This document shows, in pieces, positions 19,944 to 61,227 of a stretch of DNA of 64,000 nucleotides. The position numbers and the translations under genes were made by a program. Below the pieces are notes generated by a model, which had not been told where the DNA came from, made no database searches, and saw nothing but the letters and a program-made list of their open reading frames with translations. Every line of letters starts with the position of its first letter. The stretch's first letter is position 1. This DNA is from Candidatus Moraniibacteriota bacterium. GTDB taxonomy: Bacteria; Patescibacteriota; Minisyncoccia; Moranbacterales; UBA2206. The stretch covers positions 36,590 through 100,589 of the forward strand of contig JBAQNM010000015.1 of NCBI GenBank assembly GCA_049303795.1. Reading direction: 5' to 3'.

Positions 19944-20080
19944 GGTCACACGACGGCGGTGCCCTTGCGAACACCCCAAAACCCTTTCGAGTGAGAACCT
20001 GCGTAACAAGTACCGATCATGAGACCGTTTATGTTACGCGAGGTTCCAGACCATGCCCCACCAAAGAGTGAGGTTTAGGT
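19944..20080. ncRNA. GC-rich structured element of unknown identity (candidate small RNA)
   Basis: ~140-nt island of about 55% GC in a ~25% GC intergenic region with no ORF. Complementary segments include CCTGCGTAACA/TGTTACGCGAGG and GGTG/CACC. It sits directly 5' of a copy of the 20085-20130 direct repeat. Confidence 0.3.
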
Positions 20081-20084
20081 CAAT

Positions 20085-37840: not shown

Positions 37841-38080
37841 AAAATCAAGACCCCACTGCTAGTTTCCCCATGAAAACTTATTTTGCTTGAAATCACCAGA
37901 AAAATGCTACTGATTCTTTTGGCGATATAGCCACTTGCTTTTTTCTTTATTCTGTATTAACCTGAATTCAGGCAGTTTTAAACAAAAAACTGCCAAAAAT
38001 ACAACAGAACCTTAACAAAAAGCATTGTGCTTTTTTTTGTTTTAGCCAACCAATACCCACATAATATCAGGAGGCGTTTT

Positions 38081-39367
38081 ATGCGAAATACTATTCTAGC
38101 GAAGCTAGAAAAAAGATTTTCCTTAACCTCCCCTATTAATATATGGATGAGGTTAGTAACAAAAATTGAAACAGAAGCTGGCAAGATGATTATATCTTGC
38201 CCAAACAACACCACCAAAAAAAGACTCGGGGCACTTTCCGAAGAGATCTGTTCCGCGCTTGACTTAAAAGAAATCAGTCTGGTTATTGCGGGTACCAGCG
38301 CTGAGGAAAATACAAAAACAGTCCCCGCTGGAGATCCACAGTTGCATCTTCCAATGCACATTTCCACAAAATCGCCAAGACTTAGACCAAATTTTAATTT
38401 TGCTAATTTTTTCGTTGGCAACTTTAATAGTGTAGCCTATCATTCGGCGATGGCTTTGATTGATGAAAAGCAAAAAGCAACGGCGCCTGTGTTCATTTTT
38501 TCCGAACCGGGACTTGGCAAGACCCATCTCGCGCAAGCAATTTGTGCGAGTAATCATTCGGCTTGCTACATAACTGCCCCTTTTCTTATGGACGAGGTAG
38601 TTTATGCCTGTAGTAACGGTGGCACTGGAAGCATAAGAAAAAGATTTGCAATAAACATTGACCTGCTTGTGGTCGATGAGGTTCAAAGCTTATCGGGAAA
38701 AAACAGAACTCAAGAAGAGCTGTGCTATATAACCGATACGATACTTGACCGAGGTAAAAAAATAATCTTTTTGGGAATGCTCTCGCCAGGTGAACTTTTA
38801 AGGATAAGCGACCCTCTTCTTTCTCGTTTTCAATCATCCACTATTTGCAGTATAACTAGGCCCGATCTTGAAGATAGATTCAACCTTATTCAAAAAAAGG
38901 CCTCTGTATCTGAGCAAGTGATTTCCGATGAAGTTATTGACATCTTGGCAAGAAGATTGAGCGGTGACGTAAGAGTTATTGAAGGCTGTATTACCAGCAT
39001 GTTAAATAAGGCCACTTTTTCAAGTAGACCAATTGATACTGTTTTGGCAGAGGAAATAATCGAACAATTTGCCTCCGCCAAGAAAAAAGATCCGGCCAGC
39101 GACATCCTGAAAGTTGTCACATCCAACTTCAATCTTAAGGAAAAAGATTTATTCTCAAAAAGCCGACAGAAAAAAACTGTAATGGCAAGACAAATCTGCA
39201 TGTTTTTCTTAAGAGAACAAACGAATATGTCGCTAAAAGCGATTGGAGAAATTTTCAATCGTGATCACGCGACAGTAGCATACGCTATAACGGAAGTTCA
39301 GGAGAAAATAAATCACCTCCCAAGTTTCCTAACAACTATCGCGATTCTTAGAAAACAAATCACATAA
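38081..39367 (+). CDS. dnaA: chromosomal replication initiator DnaA
   Basis: RBS AGGAGG then ATG 38081. AAA+ domain (Walker A GLGKTHL; LLVVDEVQ). C-terminal DnaA signature RDHATVAYA within the HTH domain. Confidence 0.85.
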   Translation: MRNTILAKLEKRFSLTSPINIWMRLVTKIETEAGKMIISCPNNTTKKRLGALSEEICSALDLKEISLVIAGTSAEENTKTVPAGDPQLHLPMHISTKSPRLRPNFNFANFFVGNFNSVAYHSAMALIDEKQKATAPVFIFSEPGLGKTHLAQAICASNHSACYITAPFLMDEVVYACSNGGTGSIRKRFAINIDLLVVDEVQSLSGKNRTQEELCYITDTILDRGKKIIFLGMLSPGELLRISDPLLSRFQSSTICSITRPDLEDRFNLIQKKASVSEQVISDEVIDILARRLSGDVRVIEGCITSMLNKATFSSRPIDTVLAEEIIEQFASAKKKDPASDILKVVTSNFNLKEKDLFSKSRQKKTVMARQICMFFLREQTNMSLKAIGEIFNRDHATVAYAITEVQEKINHLPSFLTTIAILRKQIT

Positions 39368-40266: not shown

Positions 40267-43200
40267 TTACGGGTTGCTAGCTGGATTTTTTCCGTTAATT
40301 TTTGCCTGAAAATCCATTAGCACCTCCACGGCGATTCGTTTAATTTCTTTATTATAATCATCGTTCTCCTTATTACTAGCTTTCTTGTCAGGCTTTTTTA
40401 TTTTATTAGTTTTCTTGAGAAAATCTTGAGTTAGGCCATCTACTTGTCGCATCGTTTCAAGCATTAAGTCCTTAAGACTAACATTTAATCTTATCGCCGT
40501 CTTTCGCAAAACATCTTCAGTGAATTTGTTTTCACTGATCATATCCATCATTTCTTTCGCCCCCTTATCAGCATTTAATTTTCGCTTTAATTCACCTTCA
40601 AACTCAAAAGGCTTTCCGGTAAGCTTAGAAAAAATTTCTTCCAAAGTTACTGTTAATTTTTCCGTGTTTTGCTTTTGCTTTGTCCACATGTGTCCGCGTA
40701 CACTAAATCCTTGGGAAAACATGTCCGGAGCCATCTTTTCTTGAGTGTATATTACAAAAGAATTGTCTTTTGGCGACCAGATAAGATAGGCGCCATAGCC
40801 TTTCGAAAAAACTGCCATTTGACTGGAACTGCCTTCTCCACTAATTTTAGGATACCACTTCCCTTTTTTACTCATTTTTCCAGTATCAATCAAGACCTTC
40901 CCAAAGCGATCATCGCCCGTATCAAAAACGAATTTGCCACATTCCTTGTTCTTTAAAAATCTTTCTCCATTTTCTATTTGATTTTGAATGTATTTTGCAA
41001 ATTCAGAAAGTGTTTCTGTCGTTCCTTTTTGTTGATTGGCGTAAGCGTACTTATCAAGATAGTCACTTGGAAGATCTGCCGCCGGATCCGTTCCGTTTCT
41101 AAAAAGTTCGATTATATCTTTGGTTTTCATTTTGTGTGACAAACCATACATATTCTTAGAATAATTTTGATAAACTTGTTTTATTTCAGCTTGTGTAAAA
41201 TTAAAATTATCAATTTTAGTGACAAATTCTACATATTTATCCAAATACGCTTCTTTTTTCAAAAGGCCCATTTCAACCAAAGTTTCATAGACGAGACTTG
41301 TAGCACAAGTTGTTCGATCAGATTCGTCTCCATGATGATCAAGAATCAAACGTTTACCGTCCTCCTCGGCAATAACCCCATGCTTCTTTTTTGAGGTATC
41401 CATAATCACACCGCTTTCTGAAATTTCTCCCGGCTTCACAAAATTAACTTTGTCCATATCCACTTTAATGCCCGCCAATTCCATAAGCTCCAAGCAAGAA
41501 TAGGCATCCAGATCTGCTTGCTTAACAATTTTTCCATTCACCTCTTTTCCGTGAATAGTCAACTCATCCCATAACTCACGCGTTAATGCCAAAAATTTTT
41601 GATCAGCTTCTTCAAGTGTTGGTGCGTTAAGATCCTCATATTTCTTAACCTTATAGATAGTATGCAAAGCCGCCGCACGCACCGGTGCATATTTTTTCTC
41701 TTTTTCCTTTAGCGCTTCAGCACGCCGATCATTTAAATTTTTTAGTGAAGTTAAAAAAGCCTTCAGATCTTCCTTTTTTGCCTTTTCCATCACTACTTCT
41801 TTTTCATCCTCCGCCACACTTGCCGGCTCTGCTTTGCCCAAAGTGGCCGCTGCTAATGCTGCTTTAACTTCTGCATCAAGCGCTCTTTCTCTTTCTTCGG
41901 CAGCAATTTGAGCTGCTAATTTTTCCGCCGATGATTCTGTTGGAGTTTTTTTCACTAGAGCCTCCAAAGGAGTTCTGACTTTCAATAGCAACATAGCCGC
42001 CCATGCAACTTTTTTACTTTTCATTTTATTAAATAACTCATCCTTTAGTGTTTTTTCTTTTAGAAAATCTTTCTGGATTTTTTCTTCCTTGATCTTTTGC
42101 AAATATTCATTAAGTTTCTGCTCGGTGTCGTAGGCTGTCGCCCAAGGCGCTTGAATATTTTTCTTCAAAAATACTTTTGCTTCAGCAACTGCAATATACA
42201 TTTCAGTTCTTTCCTGTTCAATATTTTTTGCATCTGAAAAGCCAATGAGATCAATTTTTTCTTGCTCGGAAAAAGTAATGCGAGATCCGATCTCATTAAT
42301 ATTCTCTAAAATTTCATGCATTTTTTGTTCGTCAGGATTGTGCTTTAATTTTTGCAAGCTTTTTCTTAGATTATCAGTAAGCTCAGTTGCACTTTTTGTT
42401 TCATATCTAAATCTTTCCATTTCCTCTCTTCTCTTTGATCCTTTTTCTATTACTTTTCCTTGAGCCATTTCTCGAGCATGTTGAGTGCGCTCCTCCTTGA
42501 TACGCCTATTTTCCTTCATCCCAGAGATAAGACTTCCGATACCAAGTCCAGCTCCAGCAGTAATTGGACTCAGCGCCCATTTTGCGAGTCCTTGAGTTAT
42601 ATTCACTGAACCCTTAGCCATTGCGCCTATAGCAATCGCCAAGGCAGAAACAATCACTGAATCTTTGACAAGTTTTCCGATAAATGATTTCTTTATTTTT
42701 TCCCTAATTTTATCTAACGCATTATGTTGTGGCTCTGTTTCAACTCCCATTTTCGCCCTTCCAATCACCACTTCAAAATCTCTATCAAGAGCATCCGATC
42801 CTTGTTTATGTGAAATATTATTTTTCACCTGCTTTGCTATTTCCAAAAGATTATCAGCAAAAACTAAATTATTTTTTTCTTTGGGTAAATAAATATTATA
42901 AAGTTTTCTCTTTTCTATTTGAAATTGTTCCTCAGTCAAATTCCCACCAGCAAAATTTTTAATAAGCTCGTTAACCTTATTTTTGATCTTAACATCAACA
43001 GGATCACTATTTTTTAAAGTATTTCTCTCTTCTCCTTTGCGCAACAAACTTTCAGATTCATATTCCGCCTCAAATCTCTTCACGATTGCCATCATCGCTT
43101 CTTTGTGGTCAGCCTTTTCACCATCCCCCGCTATAAGCGAATCACCTGCTAAGCGGATCTCTCTTTTGGCTTTAGCAATTTCTTTTTGGCGATAATAATC

Positions 43201-43398
43201 CTGCGCTAAATTATATTTCCAGATTTTTTTTAAAAAACCTTTAAAACCTTTTAACTCTGTCTTTGAAGACAACAATTTTTCTTCTGCAATATCACGAGCT
43301 TGTTTTTCAATGTCAACACTGGCAATAACAACGGTTTGTCTTTTTTCAATGGACGGCTGTTGAGGAAAGCTTGTTTTATTTTTATTATTTAATTCCAT
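40267..43398 (-). CDS. giant membrane protein (1043 aa): coiled-coil N-terminal region, Gly-rich TM hairpin, large C-terminal domain with DHH-like motifs
   Basis: Central hydrophobic Gly-rich helices (SVIVSALAIAIGAMAKGS...SPITAGAGLGIGSLISG). C-terminal region contains DLDAYSCLELMELAG and LILDHHGDESD, which resemble DHH phosphoesterase motifs I and III. The architecture parallels the ORF at 57985-61227. Confidence 0.6.
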   Translation of the reverse strand: MELNNKNKTSFPQQPSIEKRQTVVIASVDIEKQARDIAEEKLLSSKTELKGFKGFLKKIWKYNLAQDYYRQKEIAKAKREIRLAGDSLIAGDGEKADHKEAMMAIVKRFEAEYESESLLRKGEERNTLKNSDPVDVKIKNKVNELIKNFAGGNLTEEQFQIEKRKLYNIYLPKEKNNLVFADNLLEIAKQVKNNISHKQGSDALDRDFEVVIGRAKMGVETEPQHNALDKIREKIKKSFIGKLVKDSVIVSALAIAIGAMAKGSVNITQGLAKWALSPITAGAGLGIGSLISGMKENRRIKEERTQHAREMAQGKVIEKGSKRREEMERFRYETKSATELTDNLRKSLQKLKHNPDEQKMHEILENINEIGSRITFSEQEKIDLIGFSDAKNIEQERTEMYIAVAEAKVFLKKNIQAPWATAYDTEQKLNEYLQKIKEEKIQKDFLKEKTLKDELFNKMKSKKVAWAAMLLLKVRTPLEALVKKTPTESSAEKLAAQIAAEERERALDAEVKAALAAATLGKAEPASVAEDEKEVVMEKAKKEDLKAFLTSLKNLNDRRAEALKEKEKKYAPVRAAALHTIYKVKKYEDLNAPTLEEADQKFLALTRELWDELTIHGKEVNGKIVKQADLDAYSCLELMELAGIKVDMDKVNFVKPGEISESGVIMDTSKKKHGVIAEEDGKRLILDHHGDESDRTTCATSLVYETLVEMGLLKKEAYLDKYVEFVTKIDNFNFTQAEIKQVYQNYSKNMYGLSHKMKTKDIIELFRNGTDPAADLPSDYLDKYAYANQQKGTTETLSEFAKYIQNQIENGERFLKNKECGKFVFDTGDDRFGKVLIDTGKMSKKGKWYPKISGEGSSSQMAVFSKGYGAYLIWSPKDNSFVIYTQEKMAPDMFSQGFSVRGHMWTKQKQNTEKLTVTLEEIFSKLTGKPFEFEGELKRKLNADKGAKEMMDMISENKFTEDVLRKTAIRLNVSLKDLMLETMRQVDGLTQDFLKKTNKIKKPDKKASNKENDDYNKEIKRIAVEVLMDFQAKINGKNPASNP

Positions 43399-50712: not shown

Positions 50713-53286
50713 ATGCTAAAATTAAACCATTATATAGATACTCCTATGTCAAGAAAAAAACCCGACAAAAAAACACAACTTTTGAAACCAGAATTTCAAA
50801 ATATTTTAATTTGTAAGAAAAAAGAGCACCGCCCGTTCCTAGAGATTCTTATTGAAGAACCAGAAAATATCTCAAGAAAAAACCTAGGTGTCCTTGTTGG
50901 AATTTTTCAAATCAATGATTATTCTGAAGACTCCTCCTATATTGTAAACTACCTTATTTCGGTTATAAAAAAGGAGTATTTTTCTCATATTAATCACGGA
51001 TCAGTGGAAAATTTCGAAGCAGCTCTACATAAAGCTAATCTCGCCCTGGCAAAATTAGCTTCTCATGAAAATATTGACTGGATTGGTAATCTTAATGCTG
51101 TTTGTGCTGTAATCGAAAAAAATAATATCCTAATTTCTCAGACTGGAACAGCATCTGTCTTTCTACTACGCAAAACAAACTTTATTGAAATAACTGAAAG
51201 CACCCAAGAGCAATCTGAAATAAGTCCGCTCAAAACTTTTCAGGATGTAATATCGGGAAAGATAGAAAAAGATGATAAGATTATTTTTACGACAAAAGAA
51301 ATTTTTGAGCTTTTTTCCTTAGAAGAAATAAAAAGAAGCGCACTTAAATTCTCCCAAGATAATTTCATTCAATTTCTCAATACCGCTCTTATCAACGAAC
51401 TTGATCAAGTAGCGACATTAATTGTGGATGTTTTTGAACAGGAAGATCCAAGTGTCATGGCCTCTGCGCCAACAAAAAAAACACCCCAAATTAATGCTTT
51501 CAGTCAAACGACATTTAGAAAAAAAGAAGCCCCGCGTCAAACATTAAAAGAATCAGAAGAAATACCACCCGTAACCATTCTCAACCAAAACGAAACAACA
51601 GCGAAATCCAAAGAGAAGGAGGATTTTATTGATAAAAAAAATGGTCACATCTACATGAAGGAAGAGCTTGATTCAGAGGGAAAATCTGAAGAAAAAACGC
51701 CTTTGATTGATTTTTCTTTATTGTGGAATAATTTTATTACTTCCTCCTCTACTTTTGGAAAGAGTGCTAAAAAACAAATGACGATTATTGGAAAATCAAT
51801 CGCAATGCCAATATTATCCGTTAAAGCTAATACGAGAAAATACATAATAGCATCAACCAGAAATATTAAGGCAATCCCTGCTAAACTTAAAAAGAAAAAA
51901 GAAAGAACGCCTGATGAATTAGAAGCAATGGTTTTGAATAATTTAAGAAAAGAAGCAGCAAGCCAGCTAATAGAAAAACCAATTATTGACAATAACGAAC
52001 TGACAGAATCACTCCCGCCTAAAACATCAATCTATTTAAAGACAATTCAAACATATAATGACTACATTCCTAAGTTTAACAAAAAGTTTGCCTGGCTTTG
52101 GGAGGGATTTATTGACATTTCTGTTATTGTTTTACATCAACCAGTTAAAGGTTTTTTCGCTATTAAAGCTTTCCTCGAAGAGAAAAAACAGAGAGAAAAA
52201 ATAGAAAAAACTCCTGTTACTTTCGAAGAGAAGTTGAGCGAGAAAGATATTGAAGCTTTTTTTTCAAAGGATACTATCGCAACGTCTTCAATTGAAAAAG
52301 ATGTAGAAAAAAATTGGCTTCTCAAAGCAAAACAGGTCCTTCCTGATTTTTCCAGACTTAAGGATTTCGGAAATAAATTCAATTCCAAGCAAAAACTATC
52401 GGCCATCCTGATTCTATTCATGCTTTTGATAGTCCCCTATTGGATAGCAAAATGGGCGAATAAAACAACTGAGGAAAAAACAATTCCGATTGTTGAAACA
52501 GCGCCTATTGCAATATTACCGTTAGAAAAAGATAAAAATGTCATAAGATTAGAAAATTTAAATGAATTATATTCCGGAGAAAATATTCAAAACATAATCA
52601 ATCTCAAAAGCAAGTTGCTTGTTATCAAATCTGATTCCATTATCAATCTTGAGACACAAAAAAACATTCCAATTCCAGCTGATTTTAAAAATCCAGACTC
52701 ATCCTTCATCATGCAAGATTTAAATACTATCTTTCTTATTAAAAACAACCAACTATCAGGGTTCACTCCATCCAACGAAAAATTTGCAACCAATAATCTT
52801 GCTTTTCCAACTAGTGACAAAATAACTGATATTAAAACTTATCTCACCTATCTCTACATTTTAGATAAAAATAATAATCAAATTTATCGCTACCCAAAAA
52901 CTGAAGGCGGATTTAATGATAAATCAGCTTGGATCAGTGAAAATATCGATTTATCCAATTCCAGCAGTATGACTATAAACCAAAGTATTTTTGTCATTAA
53001 TAATAATGAGATCATTAAGTTTTTTTCCCATAAAAGAATGCCTTTTTCAATAGAAGAAACTGCCACGCCAATCATGCTGAGTAAAATATTCACCGCACAA
53101 GACATAACAAATTTATATATTCTTGATAATAAGAATTCAAGAATAATCAAATTAGATGCTGATGGAAATATAGTGGCTCAATATTACAATGAAAAAATTG
53201 CTACTGCTAATGTTTTTTCTGTATCAGAAGAAAATAATTTGATCTATATTTCAAATGGGAATGGGGTGGAAAGTTTTAATATGTAG
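50713..53286 (+). CDS. large hypothetical protein (857 aa) with a central TM helix
   Basis: Long ORF with a Lys/Glu-rich middle and one clear TM (LSAILILFMLLIVPYWIAKWA). The C-terminal ~350 aa has a beta-rich composition. Confidence 0.55.
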   Translation: MLKLNHYIDTPMSRKKPDKKTQLLKPEFQNILICKKKEHRPFLEILIEEPENISRKNLGVLVGIFQINDYSEDSSYIVNYLISVIKKEYFSHINHGSVENFEAALHKANLALAKLASHENIDWIGNLNAVCAVIEKNNILISQTGTASVFLLRKTNFIEITESTQEQSEISPLKTFQDVISGKIEKDDKIIFTTKEIFELFSLEEIKRSALKFSQDNFIQFLNTALINELDQVATLIVDVFEQEDPSVMASAPTKKTPQINAFSQTTFRKKEAPRQTLKESEEIPPVTILNQNETTAKSKEKEDFIDKKNGHIYMKEELDSEGKSEEKTPLIDFSLLWNNFITSSSTFGKSAKKQMTIIGKSIAMPILSVKANTRKYIIASTRNIKAIPAKLKKKKERTPDELEAMVLNNLRKEAASQLIEKPIIDNNELTESLPPKTSIYLKTIQTYNDYIPKFNKKFAWLWEGFIDISVIVLHQPVKGFFAIKAFLEEKKQREKIEKTPVTFEEKLSEKDIEAFFSKDTIATSSIEKDVEKNWLLKAKQVLPDFSRLKDFGNKFNSKQKLSAILILFMLLIVPYWIAKWANKTTEEKTIPIVETAPIAILPLEKDKNVIRLENLNELYSGENIQNIINLKSKLLVIKSDSIINLETQKNIPIPADFKNPDSSFIMQDLNTIFLIKNNQLSGFTPSNEKFATNNLAFPTSDKITDIKTYLTYLYILDKNNNQIYRYPKTEGGFNDKSAWISENIDLSNSSSMTINQSIFVINNNEIIKFFSHKRMPFSIEETATPIMLSKIFTAQDITNLYILDNKNSRIIKLDADGNIVAQYYNEKIATANVFSVSEENNLIYISNGNGVESFNM

Positions 53287-53361: not shown

Positions 53362-53736
53362 TTATTGTAGTTTTTCCATTGCTGCTGCTTTTTCTAATTC
53401 ATCCTTCTCTGCTGAAATCTCCCTATAAGCCTGATCTGAATCATTTTTAACACCATCGATCTCTTTTCCAAAAGTTTCTTCTGCACTTTTCAGGCTATCT
53501 ACCAAAATTTGCTTCTCTGCCTGAACCTCGGGAGAGTCCGCATCCAAAGTGACATCTTCGCCTTTGAAAGTATCCTCGATTTCTGCTTGCAAGGCATCAT
53601 CAACTAAATCTAGGGCCTCAGTTTCAGTTTTTTCTCCACTTTTTATTTCCTCAATTAATTGAGCTTTTTTTTCACCATCAAGCTCTTCAATTTCCCCTAT
53701 TTGCCTAACAATATCTTCTATATTTTGATTTTCCAT
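53362..53736 (-). CDS. hypothetical small acidic protein
   Basis: 124-aa ORF, D/E-rich and helical. Last gene of the minus-strand cluster. Confidence 0.45.
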   Translation of the reverse strand: MENQNIEDIVRQIGEIEELDGEKKAQLIEEIKSGEKTETEALDLVDDALQAEIEDTFKGEDVTLDADSPEVQAEKQILVDSLKSAEETFGKEIDGVKNDSDQAYREISAEKDELEKAAAMEKLQ

Positions 53737-53793
53737 TTCTTTAATTTATAAATTAAAAATTATCTCCAATCTCCATCTTATTGACTAACTAGC

Positions 53794-54483
53794 TTAGTTA
53801 GCACCACCAAGCGCCGCTATCTTAGCTCTAATTTCTGCTTGTTTTGCCATAAGTTTGTTGATTTTCTCCTGCTTTTTGCTATCTTTAGATCTCAATTTTT
53901 CCATTCTTCTGTTATTAATGAAATCGCGAAACCTTCCCTTTGCTGCATTCATTTTAGAAACTAAATTATCATAAGCTTCCGAACCTCTCTCTGCTAGTTC
54001 ATTGTATTTTTCACTTGCCTTATTTGTTAATATTTTTGCGCCTTCTACTGTCTTAGATGTCACGAAAGAACCTGCTTCTACTGTAGCCATTCCCGCAGCT
54101 AATCCCGCTTCTCCAACGGCTCTCGCCCCTCTACCGGCAGCATCAACACCACTTGTAATAATTTCACCAGCTTTATTTTTTACCACATTTGCCCCTTCAA
54201 CCGTTTTGGAAACTACCAATGCTCCCGCTTCCATACTAGCTGTCCCAACAGCCTGTGCTGCTCTGCTAGAAGCCTCTGGTAACGCTAGCATCTTAAACAT
54301 TCCTTTTTTAATGCCACCCCATGTTTTACTGGCAGCTTCCGCAATAGCAGCAGCTCTCTTTTCTCCTATTGACTCTAGACTCTCTTGACTTTCAGGTTTT
54401 TGTTGAGCCTCAACATTTTCCCCTACAGGACTCACTTTTTCTGTTTTTGAACCGGAACCGCCACCATCTGGACTTTTAAACAT
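53794..54483 (-). CDS. hypothetical protein with an internal ~45-aa duplication
   Basis: RAAQAVGTASMEAGALVVSKTVEGANVVKNKAGE and RGARAVGEAGLAAGMATVEAGSFVTSKTVEGAKILTNKASE. Confidence 0.5.
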   Translation of the reverse strand: MFKSPDGGGSGSKTEKVSPVGENVEAQQKPESQESLESIGEKRAAAIAEAASKTWGGIKKGMFKMLALPEASSRAAQAVGTASMEAGALVVSKTVEGANVVKNKAGEIITSGVDAAGRGARAVGEAGLAAGMATVEAGSFVTSKTVEGAKILTNKASEKYNELAERGSEAYDNLVSKMNAAKGRFRDFINNRRMEKLRSKDSKKQEKINKLMAKQAEIRAKIAALGGAN

Positions 54484-54644
54484 ACGCTTTTTGATTTCAA
54501 CTAAAAAGTTTATAAAAAAACTTCTTAATTAAAATGAATTAATAATGAATTATTTAAATCGCATCCTCTCCATACTGATTTTACACAAAAATTGACCCGC
54601 TTGCAAACATAGAAAAAACAAGCTGAATAATACTTTAATAGCAA

Positions 54645-57110
54645 TTACAATCTTGTTCTCGCAATAATTTCCTGATTGACAATGTGTCTATCTCGACCGT
54701 ATGTTAGGCGGGATAATTCTTTTATCGCATTGGCAATTTCTTGACTGCCCTTAGTTGGAGCGAAGCCTTCAATATTAAACGGTTTCGTCAAAACACCATT
54801 AATCAAAACCTTGGCGAAGCCTTTATGGTTATCCACATTCACCAGATCATTACGAGTGAATACTGGCGCGACTTGTTTTTCCAAAAATTCCGCATCCTCC
54901 GGACCAACACGATATAGAATCATTGAGCCAATATTACCGAATACCGCTTTCGAAATTTCTTCTTTGAGCTGAGCTATAAATTGATGAGCAATATTAAGAC
55001 AAAGTCGATATTTTCGCGCTTCTGATAAAATTTGAGCGATAGAATTAGTAGTTACATTTTGAAATTCATCAAGATAGAGATAAAAATCAACACGATCATT
55101 TTCCGCGATATTAGTCCGCCCCAATGCTGCCATCAATATTTTACCTACGATCACCATACCGAGAAGTCTTGCGTTAATTTCACCAATTTTTCCCTTGGAA
55201 AGAGCAACTAGAAGAATTTTTTTATTATCCATTATTTCGCGAAAATTGATTGTACTCTTTTGTTGCGAAATAATTGGGCGCATCATGTCATTGGAAATAA
55301 AGGGCGTCAGCTTGGAAGTAATATAAGGCACCATATTAGCTAATGCTGCATCTCCTCCAGCTTTTTCAGCTTCTTTTGTCCAAAAATCAACCACTGTTTG
55401 ATTAGTGCATTTGGAAATTTTCATTGCACGAAATTCTTCATCCGCCAACACTTTAGAAATTTCCATTAAAGTTGAACCTGACTCAGGATCACTCATGACA
55501 AGAAACATAGCATTTCGCATATATTGCTCAAACATCGGTCCTCCAGTTGCCTTCAAATCATATAATTGATCAAAAATACCAATCATCTCATTAATCACGA
55601 AAGTCATTTGCTCCGGATGCTCAGGGTCATATTCCATCATATTAAGACCGAAAGGACGCTCAACATCAGACGGATCAAAAAAGACTACGTCTTGCGCTCT
55701 TTCCTTAGGAATTGAAGCTAGAATATCTTCAATTGCATCCCCATGGGGATCAATAAAGCAAAAACCTCGTCCCTCACGCGCATCTTGTTTAGCCATTTCT
55801 TGTAAAATAGTAGTCTTTCCAGTTCCAGTTTGACCAATTGCGTAAAGATGCCTTCTTCGATCACTTTCTGTCAAACGAATATCTGTTTTTACTCCACGAT
55901 ACTCATTAAAGCCAATTAGAATCCCCTCATTTGGAATCCCAACTGGAGGTGGTGCAGCATTAGCCTTGAGCCACTTAATTTTTGGCGCCTCAGTTGTAGA
56001 TATCGGAATATGAAAAATACTAGCTATTTCCTCTACCCCTAAAATCATCCCTTCTTCTGGTTTAAAATTACGGAAAATAAAATCATAGGCTGTTATTTGA
56101 TTATTACCTCTTTTGACCTTAAAGCAGTTAATGTCACCGTTTTCATATTGTGAAAAAGCATTTTCCAGATGCGATAAAATTTCTTGTGCTCGCTCGCTGG
56201 TAGCAGCTGATGCGACTAAGCGGATATTAGTTTCAAATCCTGTCTTTGAAGCTTTTTTCTCAATGCCCTTGACTAACTCTTGTTCTTCGGGGGTTAGCTG
56301 AACAGTCTTGTTTTTATCCATACCACTCTCGTCTTTTTTACCTGAAGACAACATTGTTGAAAAAACCTCACCGATTCCATCGAATACGTGAGCTCCAAAA
56401 GATTTATCCGCATCTTCAAGTCTTTTTCCTTGTTGCATCTTGTGTGCGATCTTTTTTCCCTCACTACGCCAAAGCGTTCCAGCTGGCTTGATAATCAACT
56501 GAATCCCGGCTCCCTCCGTTTCATTTTCTAGTTTACTAATTGCATTAGCGATAGCGTTAAGCGGATCCATTTTTTGGCTTTCATATGTACGAATCGGAAG
56601 TGCAGGCTTATTTTTAAGTTTAATTATCGACGTTACGGTTTTACTGCCAGGAGAAAAAATGTTGTAATCAGCTGCTCTTTCCAAAGAAGCATATGGAAAA
56701 AAACTATTAATCTGTTTTTCAATATTTTCTCTATACTTTTTTGGCACAGCAATAAAAAAAATAATCTCCTCGCTTTTTGATGGCTTTGCAATTTCTAAAG
56801 AAATACACGGAGAACCATACATTAATTTTTTGAAAAAACTATGCGTATCCTTAATAGATGAAAAAGCCGTCAACATTTGCTCCATCGCACCAATTTCACC
56901 CTTCCAAGACTCACCGTCCTTGCTTTTTTCTTCTTCTGATTTATTAAGCTTGGATACTCTAATTACATCTAAATCAAGGTTCATTGATTGGTTAATTTGA
57001 GCACGGAAACCAAGAAAACTAGAAATTATCATCCAGATTCCACTGATAAAAGTTAAAATACCAGAGACAATAAGGCAAATATTAATCAAGGGGGAGAGAT
57101 CTATATTCAT
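54645..57110 (-). CDS. membrane-anchored P-loop ATPase of the VirD4/TraG/TraD (type IV coupling protein-like) family
   Basis: N-terminal TM helix. Walker A HLYAIGQTGTGKTT, then FIDPHGD, Walker B YLYLDEFQN followed by IAHQFIAQL. The order and spacing of these motifs is what is seen in T4CP/FtsK-HerA-type ATPases. Confidence 0.65.
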   Translation of the reverse strand: MNIDLSPLINICLIVSGILTFISGIWMIISSFLGFRAQINQSMNLDLDVIRVSKLNKSEEEKSKDGESWKGEIGAMEQMLTAFSSIKDTHSFFKKLMYGSPCISLEIAKPSKSEEIIFFIAVPKKYRENIEKQINSFFPYASLERAADYNIFSPGSKTVTSIIKLKNKPALPIRTYESQKMDPLNAIANAISKLENETEGAGIQLIIKPAGTLWRSEGKKIAHKMQQGKRLEDADKSFGAHVFDGIGEVFSTMLSSGKKDESGMDKNKTVQLTPEEQELVKGIEKKASKTGFETNIRLVASAATSERAQEILSHLENAFSQYENGDINCFKVKRGNNQITAYDFIFRNFKPEEGMILGVEEIASIFHIPISTTEAPKIKWLKANAAPPPVGIPNEGILIGFNEYRGVKTDIRLTESDRRRHLYAIGQTGTGKTTILQEMAKQDAREGRGFCFIDPHGDAIEDILASIPKERAQDVVFFDPSDVERPFGLNMMEYDPEHPEQMTFVINEMIGIFDQLYDLKATGGPMFEQYMRNAMFLVMSDPESGSTLMEISKVLADEEFRAMKISKCTNQTVVDFWTKEAEKAGGDAALANMVPYITSKLTPFISNDMMRPIISQQKSTINFREIMDNKKILLVALSKGKIGEINARLLGMVIVGKILMAALGRTNIAENDRVDFYLYLDEFQNVTTNSIAQILSEARKYRLCLNIAHQFIAQLKEEISKAVFGNIGSMILYRVGPEDAEFLEKQVAPVFTRNDLVNVDNHKGFAKVLINGVLTKPFNIEGFAPTKGSQEIANAIKELSRLTYGRDRHIVNQEIIARTRL

Positions 57111-57154
57111 TTATTTGTTTTAATTTAAATTTTATTTTTATAGAATATCCGGTT

Positions 57155-57598
57155 CTATATTTCAGTAATCAAACCTTTTCTAACTAAGGCATCATGTAAA
57201 TCATCCGCCAATAAACGATCATGTAACTCGTCTAATAAATAATTGTCTTCCAAGTGTTGAGCGACTTTCACTGCATGTGCAACGCCTTTTGTTTCAGCTA
57301 GCTGTACTAAGTGTGTGATTTTACTTTCATAATCAAGTTTGTCATTTGCCAATTTTGCATCATCAGAAACATCGTCATGAGCAATTGCTGTTGAACTTTT
57401 TACTTTGGACAAAATCCTATTATAGGCGTCGTCCTTTTCCATTGAACCCTCTAATCTTTCTTTGGTCTCCGGGGCATTAGATATTTTTTCAAGCTCCGTC
57501 TGATTTAATGTGCCATCAGTTTCAATATTTTCTTTTCTATCCAAGCCACCTCCAAACTTAGCTTTCAAATTCAATTCTTCATCGATTGGTTCCAACAT
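57155..57598 (-). CDS. hypothetical acidic protein
   Basis: 147-aa ORF tightly packed between the ATPase and the 110-aa gene. Confidence 0.5.
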   Translation of the reverse strand: MLEPIDEELNLKAKFGGGLDRKENIETDGTLNQTELEKISNAPETKERLEGSMEKDDAYNRILSKVKSSTAIAHDDVSDDAKLANDKLDYESKITHLVQLAETKGVAHAVKVAQHLEDNYLLDELHDRLLADDLHDALVRKGLITEI

Positions 57599-57619
57599 AA
57601 AATTGCACTTAAATAATTA

Positions 57620-57952
57620 TTATTCCACATTCTTCATTTCTTCTTTAAATTCAACAATGATTTTCTGCACCATTTCATCATAATTATACACCTTTTCTTT
57701 TAAAAATGCACCGATTTTTTCAGGATCCATATTTTCATCTATCATTTTTTCATAAGCTTCACGATCGGCATCGTTCAATTTCTCCATCGTTTCAACGAAA
57801 ATCCTCTTTAAAAGCACCTCTGTCATTCTAATTAGCAGCTCTTCTTGTTTATCTTTTGGCAAACTTGAAAGTCCTAATTCTTCAATCAATTCTTTTTGCA
57901 TTTGCAATTGTTTCTCATCTAATTCATCATCTTGATCATTTTGATTGGTCAT
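57620..57952 (-). CDS. small acidic helical protein; paralog of 43401-43730
   Basis: 110 aa. See the shared pattern under 43401-43730. Confidence 0.5.
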   Translation of the reverse strand: MTNQNDQDDELDEKQLQMQKELIEELGLSSLPKDKQEELLIRMTEVLLKRIFVETMEKLNDADREAYEKMIDENMDPEKIGAFLKEKVYNYDEMVQKIIVEFKEEMKNVE

Positions 57953-57984
57953 ATTTTTATTTTATTATTTAATAAGCTACCCCC

Positions 57985-60900
57985 CTAAGCCGTCACTTTT
58001 CTACTTGAAAAAAGTTTAGTAACTCTGGCAACCCAATGCAACATATCTTCCCTATTACCATTGATATTTCCGCCTTCCGTATTGCCAATTCTTGCTTCAT
58101 CTCCCAGAAGATGAACGAAATCAGCTTCTATATTTTTTATTTTTTCAGCTAAAGCTGCATTAACAATTCCATTTTCCCTAGTTGATTCATAGGTTATTTC
58201 CCAAATTCTCCTATTTTTTATTATATCCCAGTTTTTAGGATCACCTAGCGACAATTCTACCATTAAATTCTTTCCAAAAGCTACTTCCTTAGTCATAAAA
58301 GAAGTTGCTTCGACATCATATTTCTCAAGTATTCCGATTGATTTTGAATCTAAATTATCATAGCCAGAATTTGACTGTTCCAAAGATTCAGTCTCAGCAG
58401 GTGTAACGTCTGATTCAACAGGAGCGACAGTTGCAGCTCCTTCTGCGCTATTCAAAGAATCATTTCCGGTTGATGCCGGCTTATTTTCAATATTTTTTTC
58501 CGTATCCAGCGGAGCAGGAGTGGCTTCTTTGGGAGCTGAAATTTCACTATCTGGCGTTTCAGAATCTGCGACATCAATATCTGGATTTCCAATTTCTCCA
58601 TCCATACCCGATTCAACCGCATTATCCGCACTTAAAATTTCAGGCTTTAAGTTTTCAGAGGTATTTTTGATAATTTCTTCCACCTTAGCTGGGGTCAGTG
58701 GTTGATCCGGGTTATCAATCCTCCAGCTAGCTATTTTGGCATTATTTTCAGTAATATTTTTCAACTCTTCGGGATTTAAACTTTCAGCTTGATAGAATGC
58801 ATCTGTAATATCAGAATCGTCCTCAAACAAACTGGACAGGTCGACTTCTTGACCAACATTAATTTCATCAACATTTTCCAATCCAAAACTGCTTGGATCA
58901 TTCGCCACTTTATCTTTCAATGCGTCTATAATATGGGCTTGTATGGCTGGATCGAGTTTGGAAAATCCCTCATAACGCCCTTGCAGTTGCCTATCAATCA
59001 TCTTCCAAACTGAATCGCCTTTTCCGACAATCTCAACGCCCTTAATATTTTCAACTGGCGAATTCGTGTCAAAACCTTTTTCAAAAGCATCCCCAGAGGC
59101 AATAGTCGAACTAGGTCCTGCTTCAGTTTCAAGATCCACTGACAACTCAGGAACTTTTTCTGAATAAATTTCAGAACTAGCGCCAACAGGAATCTCATGA
59201 TTATCTGAAGGAATTTCTGGATTAACCGGACTAACATTCGCATGCTCTGTTAAATTAATTGGTTTACCAATTTCTTCTAGTGAATCATTTCCCACTGAAA
59301 AGTTAGGGTCATACAAAGGAATTGTTGAATTGGTTGGTGGAAGATCAAATCCGGAGTCAGACGGAACCTTAGAGGCGTCCTTGAATAAATTATGAAAAAA
59401 TTCCTTCTTCCTTGCTAAATCAGCAGCTTTATCGGGTCTAAGACCAGAATCACTGCCTGCAGAATCAACGCTAGCATCAGATCCAGGGGAAACATCTGGA
59501 TTAGCATTTGCGTCGCTAGTTAAATCAACTGGCTTGCCGATTTCTTCCAAATGAGTATTTTCTGGTGAAACATCCGGATTAGCATTTGCGTGCTCCGCTA
59601 AATCCACTGGCTTGCCGATAGTCTCCAAGTGAGAACCAGGCAAGGGAACATCAACACTATTTCCAGTTGGAATTTCTGCGCTATTAAAATGACTGAAGAG
59701 GTAGGAGCCAGATCCAACAAGAATACCCGCTGTTATGCCAAAAAGCCTCCTGCTTCTCGCCTTATCCTTTTCCGTTTTTAAACCTTTAGCATATCCGTTA
59801 ATCTCCTCTTGCATTAATTCCTTCATTGCTTCATATTTTGCTTCCGGATTATTTATACTTTCAACATTTCTAATGATTTCTGCTTGTTTTTTTTGTCTTT
59901 CTGCTCCTTCTTTTTTTCTATATCTGACTTCAAGCGCTCCAGTTATACCAGCCCCAGCCATCAATCCAGATAAACCTCTTTTCATGAGTTTAGCGACTCC
60001 TACGGCACTGGCGAGACCAGTGGCACCTGCGAATCCAGCAGTGCCAGCGATGCCAACCGCCACACCAGCAGAAAGAAGCCCAACAGAAGCCAGCATTTTC
60101 AGCTTCCAATCCAATTTTCTATATCCATTAACAAACTTCTCGCTTTTTTTTGCTAGATAGTTAGGCAACTTATATTTATTCTCCCATGCCTCTGTCTTTG
60201 CATTAGTTCGCGCTTCAATAAGATTCATTTGCTCACTTTCGTTATAATACTTTGCCAAAACTTCCATTTTTTCAGTCAGTTCCGTTGGAGAAAGACTTTC
60301 TTTTTTAAGTTCTTTTATTTGATGATCAAGAAGATCTTTAAGTGCATCTTTATAATTGGCGAAATAAATTTTAGATTCTTGAGAAATTTGCTGATTAGGA
60401 CGAAAAAATCTTCCCAAAGTATTTTTTATTCCAGTAATAGCATTTGTCAGTTCATAGTCTTTTTTAGCATAGAGACCTCTCGCTATTTCAACTGCCGTCA
60501 TAAGATCTGCCTCTCGCTCCTTTCCATCAATGCCAGCATATTTCAGGTCTGCTGGAACAACATCCACTACCTCGGGAATGATTACTTCGGCGTTCTTACT
60601 AGTTTCCGGCTTAGCTTCAAAAATTTCCCGCAACGTCATTGTTCCGTCTTGCACACCTTTAACTAGATTCTCAAATTCCTCCACGCTTTCAATAGTCCTT
60701 TCCTCGAATCCACCACCCGGCAATTTAATACTAATTTCGACTATTCCAGTATTTTCTGAATAATCCTTAACAAAAAAAGCATCGCCATTCTTATCAAAAA
60801 CTCTATCATCCGGAGCTTTTTTCAAACCAAGACTATTGCATTTTTCAAAAAATTCTTTTTTACTTATAACACCTTCCTTTTTTACTTCCTCCTTGCTTCT

Positions 60901-61227
60901 AGCTTTATCCTGATAGTCTTTAAATTTTTCAGAATTCTTAAAATCTTCCAGCTGTTCAGATAAGGCTTTAAGATTCTCCATAGAAATATCCTCAGGTTTT
61001 TTAAAACTATCAGACTCTGCTCCGAAAACTTCTTTATACATCTTCTTGAGATCGCTGCGTAAATTTTTTCGTAGACCATTAAGATTCCCTTTGAGATCTT
61101 TATTTGCTAATTCATTTTCCAGTAAATCATTATACGCTTTCTCGCAAGCTGCAAGCAGTTCTGCTTGCTCATTTTTTCCATCTGTTTCAACCTTAGGCTT
61201 TGGTTTATAAACGTCCTCTTTGCTCAT
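57985..61227 (-). CDS. giant membrane protein (1080 aa) with coiled-coil N-terminus, Gly-rich TM hairpins and a C-terminal region with tandem ~28-aa repeats
   Basis: TM block LASVGLLSAGVAVGIAGTAGFAGATGLASAVGVAKL...LSGLMAGAGITGALEV...LFGITAGILVGSGSYLF. Repeats IGKPVDLAEHANANPDVSP / IGKPVDLTSDANANPDVSP / IGKPINLTEHANVSPVNP. Confidence 0.6.
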   Translation of the reverse strand: MSKEDVYKPKPKVETDGKNEQAELLAACEKAYNDLLENELANKDLKGNLNGLRKNLRSDLKKMYKEVFGAESDSFKKPEDISMENLKALSEQLEDFKNSEKFKDYQDKARSKEEVKKEGVISKKEFFEKCNSLGLKKAPDDRVFDKNGDAFFVKDYSENTGIVEISIKLPGGGFEERTIESVEEFENLVKGVQDGTMTLREIFEAKPETSKNAEVIIPEVVDVVPADLKYAGIDGKEREADLMTAVEIARGLYAKKDYELTNAITGIKNTLGRFFRPNQQISQESKIYFANYKDALKDLLDHQIKELKKESLSPTELTEKMEVLAKYYNESEQMNLIEARTNAKTEAWENKYKLPNYLAKKSEKFVNGYRKLDWKLKMLASVGLLSAGVAVGIAGTAGFAGATGLASAVGVAKLMKRGLSGLMAGAGITGALEVRYRKKEGAERQKKQAEIIRNVESINNPEAKYEAMKELMQEEINGYAKGLKTEKDKARSRRLFGITAGILVGSGSYLFSHFNSAEIPTGNSVDVPLPGSHLETIGKPVDLAEHANANPDVSPENTHLEEIGKPVDLTSDANANPDVSPGSDASVDSAGSDSGLRPDKAADLARKKEFFHNLFKDASKVPSDSGFDLPPTNSTIPLYDPNFSVGNDSLEEIGKPINLTEHANVSPVNPEIPSDNHEIPVGASSEIYSEKVPELSVDLETEAGPSSTIASGDAFEKGFDTNSPVENIKGVEIVGKGDSVWKMIDRQLQGRYEGFSKLDPAIQAHIIDALKDKVANDPSSFGLENVDEINVGQEVDLSSLFEDDSDITDAFYQAESLNPEELKNITENNAKIASWRIDNPDQPLTPAKVEEIIKNTSENLKPEILSADNAVESGMDGEIGNPDIDVADSETPDSEISAPKEATPAPLDTEKNIENKPASTGNDSLNSAEGAATVAPVESDVTPAETESLEQSNSGYDNLDSKSIGILEKYDVEATSFMTKEVAFGKNLMVELSLGDPKNWDIIKNRRIWEITYESTRENGIVNAALAEKIKNIEADFVHLLGDEARIGNTEGGNINGNREDMLHWVARVTKLFSSRKVTA
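59200..59650 (-). repeat. in-frame tandem DNA repeats (~84-nt unit) inside the giant ORF
   Basis: Two near-identical adjacent units (59491-59574 and 59575-59650) plus a diverged copy near 59215-59290. Confidence 0.6.

Follow-up and report, generated by a model that had tools for sequence, protein, structure and literature searches.

In the type IV coupling complex of Legionella, DotL is joined by IcmS/IcmW as small acidic adaptors and by DotM as a partner in the membrane. The locus described here has a comparable composition, i.e., a coupling ATPase with one membrane protein and two cytoplasmic proteins that are small and acidic, and the likeness is one of analogy only: no sequence or fold evidence relates its 147-aa or DUF5663 protein to IcmS/IcmW. 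In Patescibacteria, 5,713 VirD4-like T4CP homologues have been identified in 2,918 genomes, 148 of them near virB4, and exaptation was regarded as possible by the authors of that survey (Quinonero-Coronel et al., 2025; PMC12102498). A t4cp homologue of Southlakia epibionticum, not necessarily of the DUF8128 family, was reported to be dispensable for epibiotic growth, whereas the T4SS genes were essential (PMC12102498); in the description of the Southlakia T4SS itself, no coupling protein was recognisable (PMC10633639). Patescibacteria are already known to carry orphan T4CP homologues (PMC12102498), and the ATPase gene reported here very probably belongs to the 5,713, sharing with the orphan homologues the phylum, a chromosomal location distant from virB4, and the lack of a relaxase. 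We found no statement in that study on an N-terminal VirB4-like domain or on the module formed by a large protein, a DUF5663 protein, a 147-aa protein, and the ATPase.

The window, i.e., the whole analysed stretch of 64,000 nucleotides, belongs to a Candidatus Moraniibacteriota MAG (CPR/Patescibacteria), which bears out the initial annotation in its conditional assignment of the organism to the CPR. All six minus-strand ORFs that it had mentioned were confirmed (Table 1). In 5'->3' gene order, the gaps are 32, 21, and 44 nt between the four upstream genes and then 161 and 57 nt, as expected from the reported close packing (50 nt or less) and the ~160-nt gap ahead of two further genes. Dozens of independent genomes carry homologues of the four upstream genes in this order; hence, these ORFs are real genes rather than chance ones. 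No terminator-like site was found between them, which together with gaps of 21-44 nt is consistent with a single operon. The proposed six-gene unit holds for these four genes, whose order is conserved, but the two downstream genes are outside the conserved module. The synteny suggests that the four genes may be functionally linked.

Table 1. Features of the locus (positions in the window; residues refer to the encoded protein).
Feature	Position	Strand	Basis
1080-aa membrane protein: Lys/Glu-rich N-part, Gly/Ala-rich hydrophobic core, acidic Ser/Pro-rich variable C-part	57985-61227	minus	ORF confirmed
Gly/Ala-rich hydrophobic region, residues 374-514, around K/R-rich loop 435-494	59686-60108	minus	hydropathy, charge counts
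78-nt (26-aa) tandem repeat, ~2 copies, in the predicted extracellular part	59489-59633	minus	TRF score 216
110-aa acidic DUF5663 protein	57620-57952	minus	ORF confirmed; Pfam PF18908
Acidic cytoplasmic protein of 147 aa, most constant ATPase partner	57155-57598	minus	ORF confirmed; synteny 61/70
821-aa membrane-anchored T4CP-family ATPase, DUF8128 N-domain and TrwB/VirD4-type motor	54645-57110	minus	ORF confirmed
N-terminal membrane helix of the ATPase, residues 1-39	56994-57110	minus	hydropathy, model, conservation
DUF8128 domain of the ATPase, ~residues 45-365, VirB4-N-terminal-domain-like fold	56016-56978	minus	
P-loop motor domain of the ATPase, ~residues 396-821	54648-55925	minus	
Two lineage-specific downstream genes	53362-54483	minus	after 161-nt gap
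229-aa protein	53794-54483	minus	ORF confirmed
124-aa protein	53362-53736	minus	ORF confirmed

The ATPase carries the four previously noted motifs in the same order, namely, GQTGTGKTT at residue 426 (Walker A, residues 426-434), DPHGD at 454, YLYLDEFQN at 677 (Walker B, residues 677-685), and IAHQFIAQL at 707. The single N-terminal membrane helix was likewise recovered: the segment has a Kyte-Doolittle maximum of 2.32, is modelled as one long helix over residues 6-43, and keeps its hydrophobic consensus across 66 homologues. The AF2 models, which are of moderate confidence (pLDDT 76), contain, between the two Walker motifs, an all-helical insert at ~residues 501-628, i.e., the all-alpha insertion of the T4CP-type nucleotide-binding domain. 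In Foldseek comparisons, the ATPase model was aligned with the ~425-residue TrwB-deltaN70 chains over ~420 columns at target-normalised TM scores of 0.60-0.65, and the C-domains of VirB4 and HerA fit the motor almost as well as TrwB. The membrane helix is separated from the motor by the DUF8128 domain of ~330 aa, which has the fold of the VirB4-type N-terminal domain, and the direct junction of anchor and motor seen in canonical T4CPs is absent.

Profile searches of the ATPase, suggested in the initial annotation, placed its FtsK-HerA-type P-loop motor above the Pfam cut-offs for both TrwB_AAD_bind (27 bits; cut-off 20.5) and TraG-D_C (27.3 bits; cut-off 22), and DotL was its best sequence match in PDB (E 5e-4). 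PF26449 is precomputed on all homologues of the ATPase. Scores against curated equivalogs (TraD, VirD4-like CD1115, and others) fell below the cut-offs, the best being 37.7 bits (cut-off 366) and 33.6 bits (cut-off 250). The VirB4 Pfam models AAA_10 and CagE_TrbE_VirB gave no match at E <= 0.1, and TIGR00929 (VirB4) matched at E 0.012 with 13.8 bits vs. a cut-off of 643. The similarity to canonical T4CPs (TrwB of R388, VirD4, TraD/TraG, DotL, Cag-beta) does not extend beyond the regions of the two Walker motifs, and the ATPase differs from them in the additional VirB4-NTD-like domain and in having no relaxase or T4SS linkage. The description of the protein as a T4CP-like coupling ATPase stands on the T4CP Pfam models and the helical insert, but its identity as a canonical VirD4 is ruled out by the N-terminal domain. 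From VirB4 proteins (TrwK of R388, VirB4 of T. pseudethanolicus), it is distinguished by the lack of VirB4 Pfam matches and of VirB3, VirB6, and VirB8-like neighbours, for which the operon gave no Pfam or NCBIfam match. Three further assignments were considered and rejected: the motor signature and closest fold match of FtsK/SpoIIIE were not found, nor were an above-threshold DUF87/HerA central domain with a HAS-barrel N-domain (HerA), nor a multi-domain FtsK-like ATPase accompanied by small WXG100 helical-hairpin proteins (type VII, EssC/EccC + WXG100). The NCBI name of the source protein is "TraM recognition domain-containing protein."

Full-length relatives of the ATPase were found by tblastn on 276 plasmids. 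Alignments with plasmids of Bacillus, Streptomycetaceae, Clostridium, and haloarchaea cover ~residues 90-815 at 22-28% identity, and the plasmid proteins are 812-886 aa long; Sulfolobus plasmids match as well, outside the tblastn rows inspected. Used as phmmer queries, plasmid T4CPs match the CPR ATPase in 80/80 loci with E-values down to 8e-75, while plasmid VirB4 queries yield no match or reach only about E 1e-4. On the B. subtilis plasmid NZ_CP032854, the homologue (WP_121549396.1) is followed by Replic_Relax, TcpC, TcpE, and VirB4 (AAA_10), and on an Embleya plasmid the order is TrbL_4, PrgI, VirB4-like, the homologue (WP_331738717.1), Replic_Relax, and NlpC/P60; Replic_Relax is adjacent to the homologue in both loci inspected. 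The monoderm and archaeal plasmid DUF8128 T4CPs share with the CPR ATPase the N-domain and motor architecture, the length, and full-length homology, but they adjoin Replic_Relax, VirB4 (AAA_10), TcpC, TcpE/PrgI, TrbL-like, and cell-wall hydrolase genes, whereas the CPR gene is chromosomal, has none of these conjugation genes within 10 kb, and is accompanied by CPR-only partners that the plasmid loci lack. No homologue of the 147-aa protein was found beside the plasmid or phage relatives.

Among 80 related CPR loci, 70 of which had enough upstream sequence for counting partners, the ATPase is 47-91% identical and syntenic throughout, and it evolves more slowly than any other gene around it, core genes included. 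The 147-aa protein is encoded directly upstream of it in 61/70 loci, and DUF5663 and the large membrane protein are found upstream in 47/70 loci each; a large ORF with a central membrane region directly precedes DUF5663 almost everywhere. More distant CPR classes retain the ATPase beside other small neighbours. The flanking genes are core genes, including PMT_2, POTRA/FtsQ-like, holB, rpsP, and L10/L12, with dnaA 15 kb away. That no VirB4 or relaxase is recognisable had been pointed out before, and this extends from the scanned ORFs of the window, where VirB4, relaxase-like, and TcpC genes were absent, to the 10 kb around the ATPase in all 80 loci, where neither VirB4 nor Replic_Relax (relaxase-like) nor TcpC was found. 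The conservation of gene order across related genomes, proposed as a check, was established in the same set. Because of the helical insert, the conserved order, the absence of nearby conjugation genes, and the CPR identity of the organism, the two outcomes named against the initial annotation, i.e., an FtsK/SpoIIIE- or HerA-like ATPase without the all-alpha domain in a non-conserved gene order, and a cytoplasmic large protein, do not apply.

The 1080-aa protein has a Lys/Glu-rich N-terminus, in which residues ~130-235 look globular. Of the three Gly-rich membrane helices proposed for it, the segments 374-415 and 494-514 are indeed hydrophobic, but the former is of hairpin length and 418-434 is weak. 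The loop 435-494 contains 17 K/R, and beyond residue 514 there are one K/R and seven D/E; this charge distribution around the hydrophobic segments supports the presumed extracytoplasmic position of the C-terminal region. The repeats had been given as 28 aa long; their period is 26 aa, with copies at residues 535 and 561 in tandem and a dispersed third one at 651. A close relative (P0122) has one copy more. Residues 374-514 are nearly invariant among the three close homologues. Only three database relatives of the protein were retrieved. It matched nothing in Pfam, NCBIfam, or PDB, and no similarity to VirB6, TrbL, or other channel families was detectable. An iterated HMM joins 47/63 of the upstream large ORFs through a core at ~residues 200-550, i.e., the membrane-proximal part, and a second block at ~724-860. 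Divergence can be rapid: in one locus (L001), the large protein aligns over 26% of its length at 32% identity, compared with 85% identity for the ATPase, and in some relatives (L002, L009, L059) the large protein is missing or cut to a TM-less form of 198-471 aa. Since it is undetected in about one-third of loci, it is not an obligatory channel for the ATPase.

All 102 homologues of the 147-aa protein are unnamed or hypothetical, and none has a Pfam domain; no match was found in PDB. Three blocks of its sequence are conserved, one being a region of ~60 aa at the C-terminus that is predicted to be helical. The 110-aa protein matches DUF5663 with 36.2 bits (cut-off 23.7) over model positions 1-83 of 84, and by hhalign the two small proteins are unrelated.

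Beyond the observed family identity, domain architecture, conservation, synteny, and absence of conjugation genes nearby, we propose, at a probability of about one-half, that the locus encodes a non-conjugative envelope translocation module, exapted from conjugation and equipped with CPR-only partners. The ATPase belongs to a type IV coupling-ATPase family of monoderm bacteria and archaea, as a Patescibacteria form that is chromosomal and, on this proposal, vertically inherited; in the CPR lineage, the relaxase and channel genes would have been lost from the locus, and the ATPase fixed beside three CPR-only genes. As to oligomeric state, physical partners, substrate, and direction of transport, it may assemble as a membrane-anchored hexamer and use ATP to hand over a macromolecule, either protein or nucleic acid, to a conduit in the membrane of which the large protein would most likely be a part, with the 147-aa protein as a putative adaptor or regulator of the motor. 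The large protein would have kept its cytoplasmic juxtamembrane part and Gly/Ala-rich membrane core, while its predicted extracellular part diverged rapidly and varied in repeat number. Possibly, the module serves cell-surface or host-interaction biology; the secretion or host-attachment apparatus conjectured in the initial annotation is likewise hypothetical. A conjugation-type motor kept in the CPR core chromosome, with no other DNA-transfer genes nearby and tied to three lineage-specific genes, offers a concrete handle on the role of thousands of "orphan" coupling ATPases in CPR bacteria.

Somewhat unlikely, in our estimate, is that the ATPase serves as the coupling protein of a canonical Patescibacteria T4SS (VirB4, VirB3, VirB6, pilins) located at another genomic site, with the 147-aa and DUF5663 proteins as adaptors or chaperones and the large protein as a substrate or an unrelated neighbour. 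T4CP genes often lie away from virB4, and most Patescibacteria genomes have a VirB4 cluster (PMC12102498); moreover, plasmid members of the family act alongside a separate VirB4, the pair of ATPase and 147-aa protein is more widespread than the large protein, and the latter is truncated in some lineages. However, both Southlakia observations cited above speak against it, and a dedicated partner is suggested by the tight packing of the four genes and by the conservation of the membrane-proximal core in the large protein.

A housekeeping DNA translocase, active in segregation at division, DNA uptake, or repair like FtsK, HerA, or the archaeal Ced/VirB4-like importers, and not a secretion device, would be an improbable identity for the ATPase. 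An anti-phage defence or other conflict system around a HerA/mad8-like ATPase is very unlikely: the PADLOC match is limited to the generic P-loop motor, no nuclease, Sir2, or other effector domain was found in the operon with Pfam and NCBIfam, and defence islands are patchy and mobile, whereas the recovered loci, with the ATPase as the most conserved gene in 80/80, suggest a uniform single syntenic copy across the clade. Finally, the reading of the locus as what is left of a decayed integrated conjugative element, suggested by the conjugation clusters around the nearest non-CPR relatives and by full-length relatives in Bacillus phages, is largely refuted by synteny and conservation, as the chromosomal position recurs in numerous species and the ATPase is under stronger purifying selection than neighbouring core genes; besides, the locus has no integrase, relaxase, VirB4, or tRNA junction, and its GC content (0.32-0.39) shows no anomaly against the rest of the window.

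For the two downstream genes, the 80 related loci yielded no homologues, even with HMM iteration, and they probably form a separate transcription unit. The nearest relative (L085, 91% identical) is alone in having genes at the same two positions, encoding proteins of 197 and 122 aa, the correspondence being positional.

All six minus-strand ORFs of the initial annotation are present exactly where it placed them. Its description of the first four genes as tightly packed holds, the gaps being 32, 21, and 44 nt, and the gap of about 160 nt claimed before two more genes measures 161 nt and precedes the 229-aa gene, which is separated from the 124-aa gene by 57 nt. A scan for promoters and terminators yielded 26 promoter-like sites versus 23.6 expected. 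The composition of the window has no break and reads as ordinary chromosome, and VirB4, relaxase, and pilin genes, said to be lacking, were indeed not found among the window ORFs scanned. An NCBI protein of a Candidatus Moraniibacteriota MAG matches the ATPase with 100% identity, and Moranbacteria are placed in the class Paceibacteria (genome table in PMC12102498). The operon is about 15 kb away from dnaA, which makes the module origin-proximal; the same has been reported for Paceibacteria T4SS genes.

Features of the window and of related loci (L-numbers), with protein identities between the window and locus L001
Feature	Location	Coordinates	Strand	Identity in L001
ATPase (821 aa)	window	54645-57110	-	85%
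147-aa protein	window	57155-57598	-	59%
DUF5663 (110 aa)	window	57620-57952	-	79%
Large protein (1080 aa)	window	57985-61227	-	32% over 26% of length
Tandem 26-aa repeats	window	59489-59633		
229-aa protein	window	53794-54483	-	
124-aa protein	window	53362-53736	-	
857-aa neighbour	window	50713-53286	+	47%
PMT_2				74%
POTRA protein				57%
DnaA gene	window	38027-39367	+	
1043-aa ORF	window	40267-43398	-	
459-aa ORF	window	17235-18614	+	
LOOT RNA (RF03000)	window	19958-20081	-	
Core genes SMC, DnaX, RNase III, Obg, RlmN-like radical SAM	window			
Second large protein + DUF5663 pair	L031	12623-14896		
Short large protein	L002	8431-9465		
Short large protein	L009	7967-9382		
Short large protein	L059	8859-9455		
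~160-aa upstream protein	L078	1920-2405		
~160-aa upstream protein	L082	9471-9983		
~160-aa upstream protein	L083	9410-9874		
220-236-aa downstream protein	L076	12594-13256		
220-236-aa downstream protein	L079	12469-13170		
220-236-aa downstream protein	L082	12511-13221		
phrog_5156 example	L084 (MW001214.1)	99766-102486		

A word-indexed search with the ATPase returned 2,265 relatives, the best 120 of which are all at least 68% identical. Scanning of GTDB species representatives yielded 80 loci with full-length ATPase identity of 47–80%, from Moraniibacteriota, Parcubacteria, Paceibacterota, Uhr-, Magasanik-, and Portnoybacteria, and Minisyncoccota. Their neighborhoods were surveyed by searching six-frame ORFs with the window proteins and iterated HMMs, 70 loci having at least 1.5 kb upstream. 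The gene order recurs in these relatives: the 147-aa protein is encoded directly 5' of the ATPase in 61/70 loci, and DUF5663 and a large-protein homologue are found upstream in 47/70 each. An ORF of 700–1800 aa with a mid-protein hydrophobic segment adjoins the upstream side of DUF5663 almost everywhere. No homologues of VirB4, Replic_Relax, or TcpC occur within 10 kb at any CPR locus. The two downstream genes, originally counted in the operon, do not belong to this pattern, as neither protein has homologues in the 80 related loci; a 91%-identical relative alone has genes at the corresponding positions.

The more distant classes retain the ATPase with a different ORF of about 160 aa upstream and a conserved ORF of 220–236 aa downstream. 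The former, from Uhr- and Magasanikbacteria and Minisyncoccota, carries the C-terminal motif LEQEAKIKADKIL; the latter, in three distant loci, the motif VEGVFDGQ...NYASKSKLVEGD. Both may be alternative partners of the ATPase. In one related locus (L031), a second large-protein homologue and DUF5663 pair lies directly downstream of the ATPase, suggesting that the two travel together as a duplicable unit.

The four ordered motifs ascribed to the ATPase were found at residues 426, 454, 677, and 707, and its proposed N-terminal TM helix corresponds to residues 1–39, which are strongly hydrophobic and modelled as helical. The Pfam families TrwB_AAD_bind and TraG-D_C exceed their gathering scores, covering only the Walker A and Walker B regions. 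NCBIfam matches to TraD and VirD4-like models are below threshold, and the VirD4-like CD1115 model spans the entire motor (residues 398–740). Sequence matches in PDB are weak (DotL, E 5e-4; TrwB, E 9e-3). In an AF2 model (66-sequence alignment, pLDDT 76.3), a long helix at the N-terminus is followed by an alpha/beta domain (residues 45–365) and a RecA-like motor, which carries an all-helical insert at about 501–628. Foldseek ranks full-length TrwK/VirB4 first for the full-length model (E 2e-15), followed by TrwB (target-normalised TM of about 0.63 over about 420 columns); hence, the modelled motor is of the T4SS/HerA type and clearly not FtsK. The motor fold alone cannot tell a T4CP from VirB4.

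The N-terminal domain, DUF8128, was modelled separately (residues 37–400, pTM 0.75). The list of structural matches to this model includes neither P-loop ATPases nor a VirB4 entry consisting of the C-domain only; thus, the match is to the N-terminal domain of VirB4, and DUF8128 is predicted to have a VirB4-NTD-like fold. Searches with this domain returned 1,671 clusters at the 50% identity level, with full-length members of about 790–930 aa among the matches listed. Identification of the ATPase itself as VirB4 was rejected: the fold of the N-domain agrees with it, but the sequence models and plasmid VirB4 queries disagree.

Full-length relatives of the ATPase (22–28% identity, residues ~90–815) were detected by tblastn on 276 plasmids, with hosts including Streptomyces, Bacillus, Clostridium, haloarchaea, and Sulfolobus. 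Gene order was inspected for two of them. A 24.7-kb B. subtilis plasmid has an operon that opens with the homologue and continues with Replic_Relax, TcpC, TcpE, a separate VirB4 (AAA_10, E 3e-116), and more genes for conjugal transfer. The cluster of an Embleya plasmid runs TrbL_4-like, PrgI family, VirB4-like, the homologue, Replic_Relax, and NlpC/P60, and the homologue matches T4SS-DNA_transf, TrwB_AAD_bind, and TraG-D_C. In both cases, it occupies the coupling-protein position beside a relaxase-like gene, and VirB4 is a distinct gene. In reciprocal phmmer searches, plasmid T4CP queries match the CPR ATPase in 80/80 loci (E down to 8e-75), whereas plasmid VirB4 queries give no match or about E 1e-4. 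Gene position on plasmids together with the reciprocal searches identifies the CPR ATPase as a T4CP, of a monoderm/archaeal subfamily that kept a VirB4-like N-domain.

Phages also carry full-length relatives (phrog_5156, E 1.7e-86; 47 records, 43 from Bacillus phages), including SPO1-like phages, phage G, and Tsamsa/Thrax. The family phrog_5156 (e.g., the L084 protein and JN638751.1 gp156) has no assigned function, and its neighbours are hypothetical genes, with no conjugation genes close by. The partner proteins are CPR-specific, their HMMs matching nothing beside the plasmid or phage homologues.

Database relatives of the large protein number only three (100, 74, and 68% identity); in these, the N-terminal part, membrane core, and a block at ~600–900 are conserved, while repeat number and the last ~150 residues differ. 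Its tandem repeats are real, with a period of 78 nt (26 aa) rather than 28 aa; about two tandem copies are followed by a third, dispersed one, and a close relative has one extra copy. Where three Gly-rich TM helices were claimed, it has hydrophobic Gly/Ala-rich segments at 374–415, 418–434 (weak), and 494–514. Loops 413–420 and 435–494 are K/R-rich and the sequence after residue 514 is acidic, which by the positive-inside rule fits an N-terminus inside and a C-terminus outside. An iterated HMM joined 47/63 of the large upstream ORFs by a core matching residues ~200–550, which takes in the juxtamembrane part on the cytoplasmic side, the hydrophobic region, and the loop; another block common to related ORFs lies at ~724–860. 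A LysM-like reading of block ~720–860, suggested by the pattern GDS...GQ, has no Pfam support even when the segment is searched by itself at E <= 5, and three further sub-segments gave no Pfam matches. The 229-aa protein has a duplicated Gly/Ala-rich amphipathic segment (residues ~75–110 and 126–160) and resembles the hydrophobic core of the large protein in composition.

In three loci (L002, L009, and L059), the large protein has shrunk to 198–471 aa without a hydrophobic segment, and DUF5663 is missing. Portions of the cytoplasmic core survive in the first two short forms, as does the block at the very C-terminus; the third has a core match only.

All 102 homologues of the 147-aa protein are unnamed or hypothetical, and none has a Pfam domain. 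Conservation is in three blocks, an N-terminal motif LEPIEExDLDLKxKF, a central motif ERKEG..EKD.AY..ILSK, and a C-terminal region of about 60 aa. DUF5663 is acidic and about 100 aa long, and neither protein has a hydrophobic segment. They are unrelated to each other, so a reading as paralogues was rejected (hhalign probability 0.04%), a type VII-like reading with small helical proteins as WXG100 substrates is unsupported, and sequence searches of PDB with these two and the large protein gave nothing meaningful.

Identities to a single genome (L001) range widely (see table). Together with the divergence among the large-protein relatives, they argue for strong purifying selection on the motor and a fast-changing predicted outer part of the large protein.

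Thus, the ATPase belongs to a subfamily of conjugative T4CPs that have a VirB4-like N-domain, and it has been domesticated into the core genome; relaxase and channel genes have been stripped from its neighborhood in CPR, and CPR-specific genes fixed alongside. The initial observation is essentially correct, and its interpretation is partly supported and now sharper: the T4CP-type family and the absence of conjugation genes nearby hold, and gene order is conserved in relatives; the ATPase is no canonical VirD4, the two downstream genes fall outside the conserved module, and the repeats are 26 aa long. The ATPase would act as a membrane-anchored hexameric motor with the 147-aa protein as its adaptor or regulator, joined in most Moranbacteria-type genomes by DUF5663 and the large envelope protein, whose conserved cytoplasmic/TM core would face the machinery and whose variable part would face outward.

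There is a roughly 15% chance that the four genes make up a minimal translocon that is self-sufficient, needs no VirB4, and is unique to Paceibacteria-type CPR. The coupling-type ATPase, with its VirB4-like membrane-docking domain, would drive DNA or protein through a channel of the Gly/Ala-rich helices of the large protein, whose hypervariable outer domain would touch the host cell or environment; this would be a new class of conjugation-derived device for uptake or for transfer between cells. The leading alternative is that the module is a detached coupling complex of a canonical T4SS encoded elsewhere, an explanation kept alive by lineages in which the large protein is partly dispensable. 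Housekeeping DNA translocation by the ATPase is less likely, as is a defence system, for which only generic motor matches were obtained. An ICE remnant is also less likely, a mobile-element remnant having been rejected on synteny, conservation, and composition.

Orphan T4CPs are already known in CPR: thousands of coupling-ATPase homologues reside in Patescibacteria chromosomes far from secretion systems (Quinonero-Coronel et al., 2025; PMC12102498). A t4cp homologue of Southlakia is dispensable for epibiotic growth, and exaptation was considered possible (PMC12102498); the essential Southlakia T4SS has no recognisable coupling or relaxase proteins (Wang et al., 2023; PMC10633639). A literature search for DUF5663, DUF8128, PF18908, and PF26449 found no mention, and the four-gene module and VirB4-like N-domain appear undescribed within the literature searched. 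Patescibacteria, which live in dependence on other cells, account for a large fraction of the bacterial diversity not yet cultivated. The locus makes the orphan-T4CP observation concrete, with the best-conserved gene of the neighborhood, a VirB4-like docking domain, and defined partners, among them a membrane protein with a predicted variable surface, and it structurally links the VirB4 branch of type IV secretion ATPases to the VirD4 branch. Testable hypotheses follow on interaction and co-transcription, on localisation, and on whether the module is phyletically coupled to the VirB4 cluster. If the module alone moves DNA or proteins, it would be a new minimal descendant of conjugation; if it only serves a canonical T4SS, the missing coupling complex of that system would have been identified.

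The 857-aa protein, convergent with the operon, is a conserved neighbour: 41 related loci have homologues downstream of the ATPase. The protein has a single strong TM segment (residues 556–583), weak beta-propeller-like (Pizza) similarity in its C-terminal part, a weak PADLOC SAVED match (E 8.6e-6), and a very weak PP2C match at the N-terminus; it belongs to no Pfam family, and sequence search of PDB gave nothing meaningful. The 1043-aa ORF close to dnaA and the 459-aa ORF likewise lack Pfam matches, and the LOOT RNA scores 57.5 bits in Rfam against a gathering score of 46.4.
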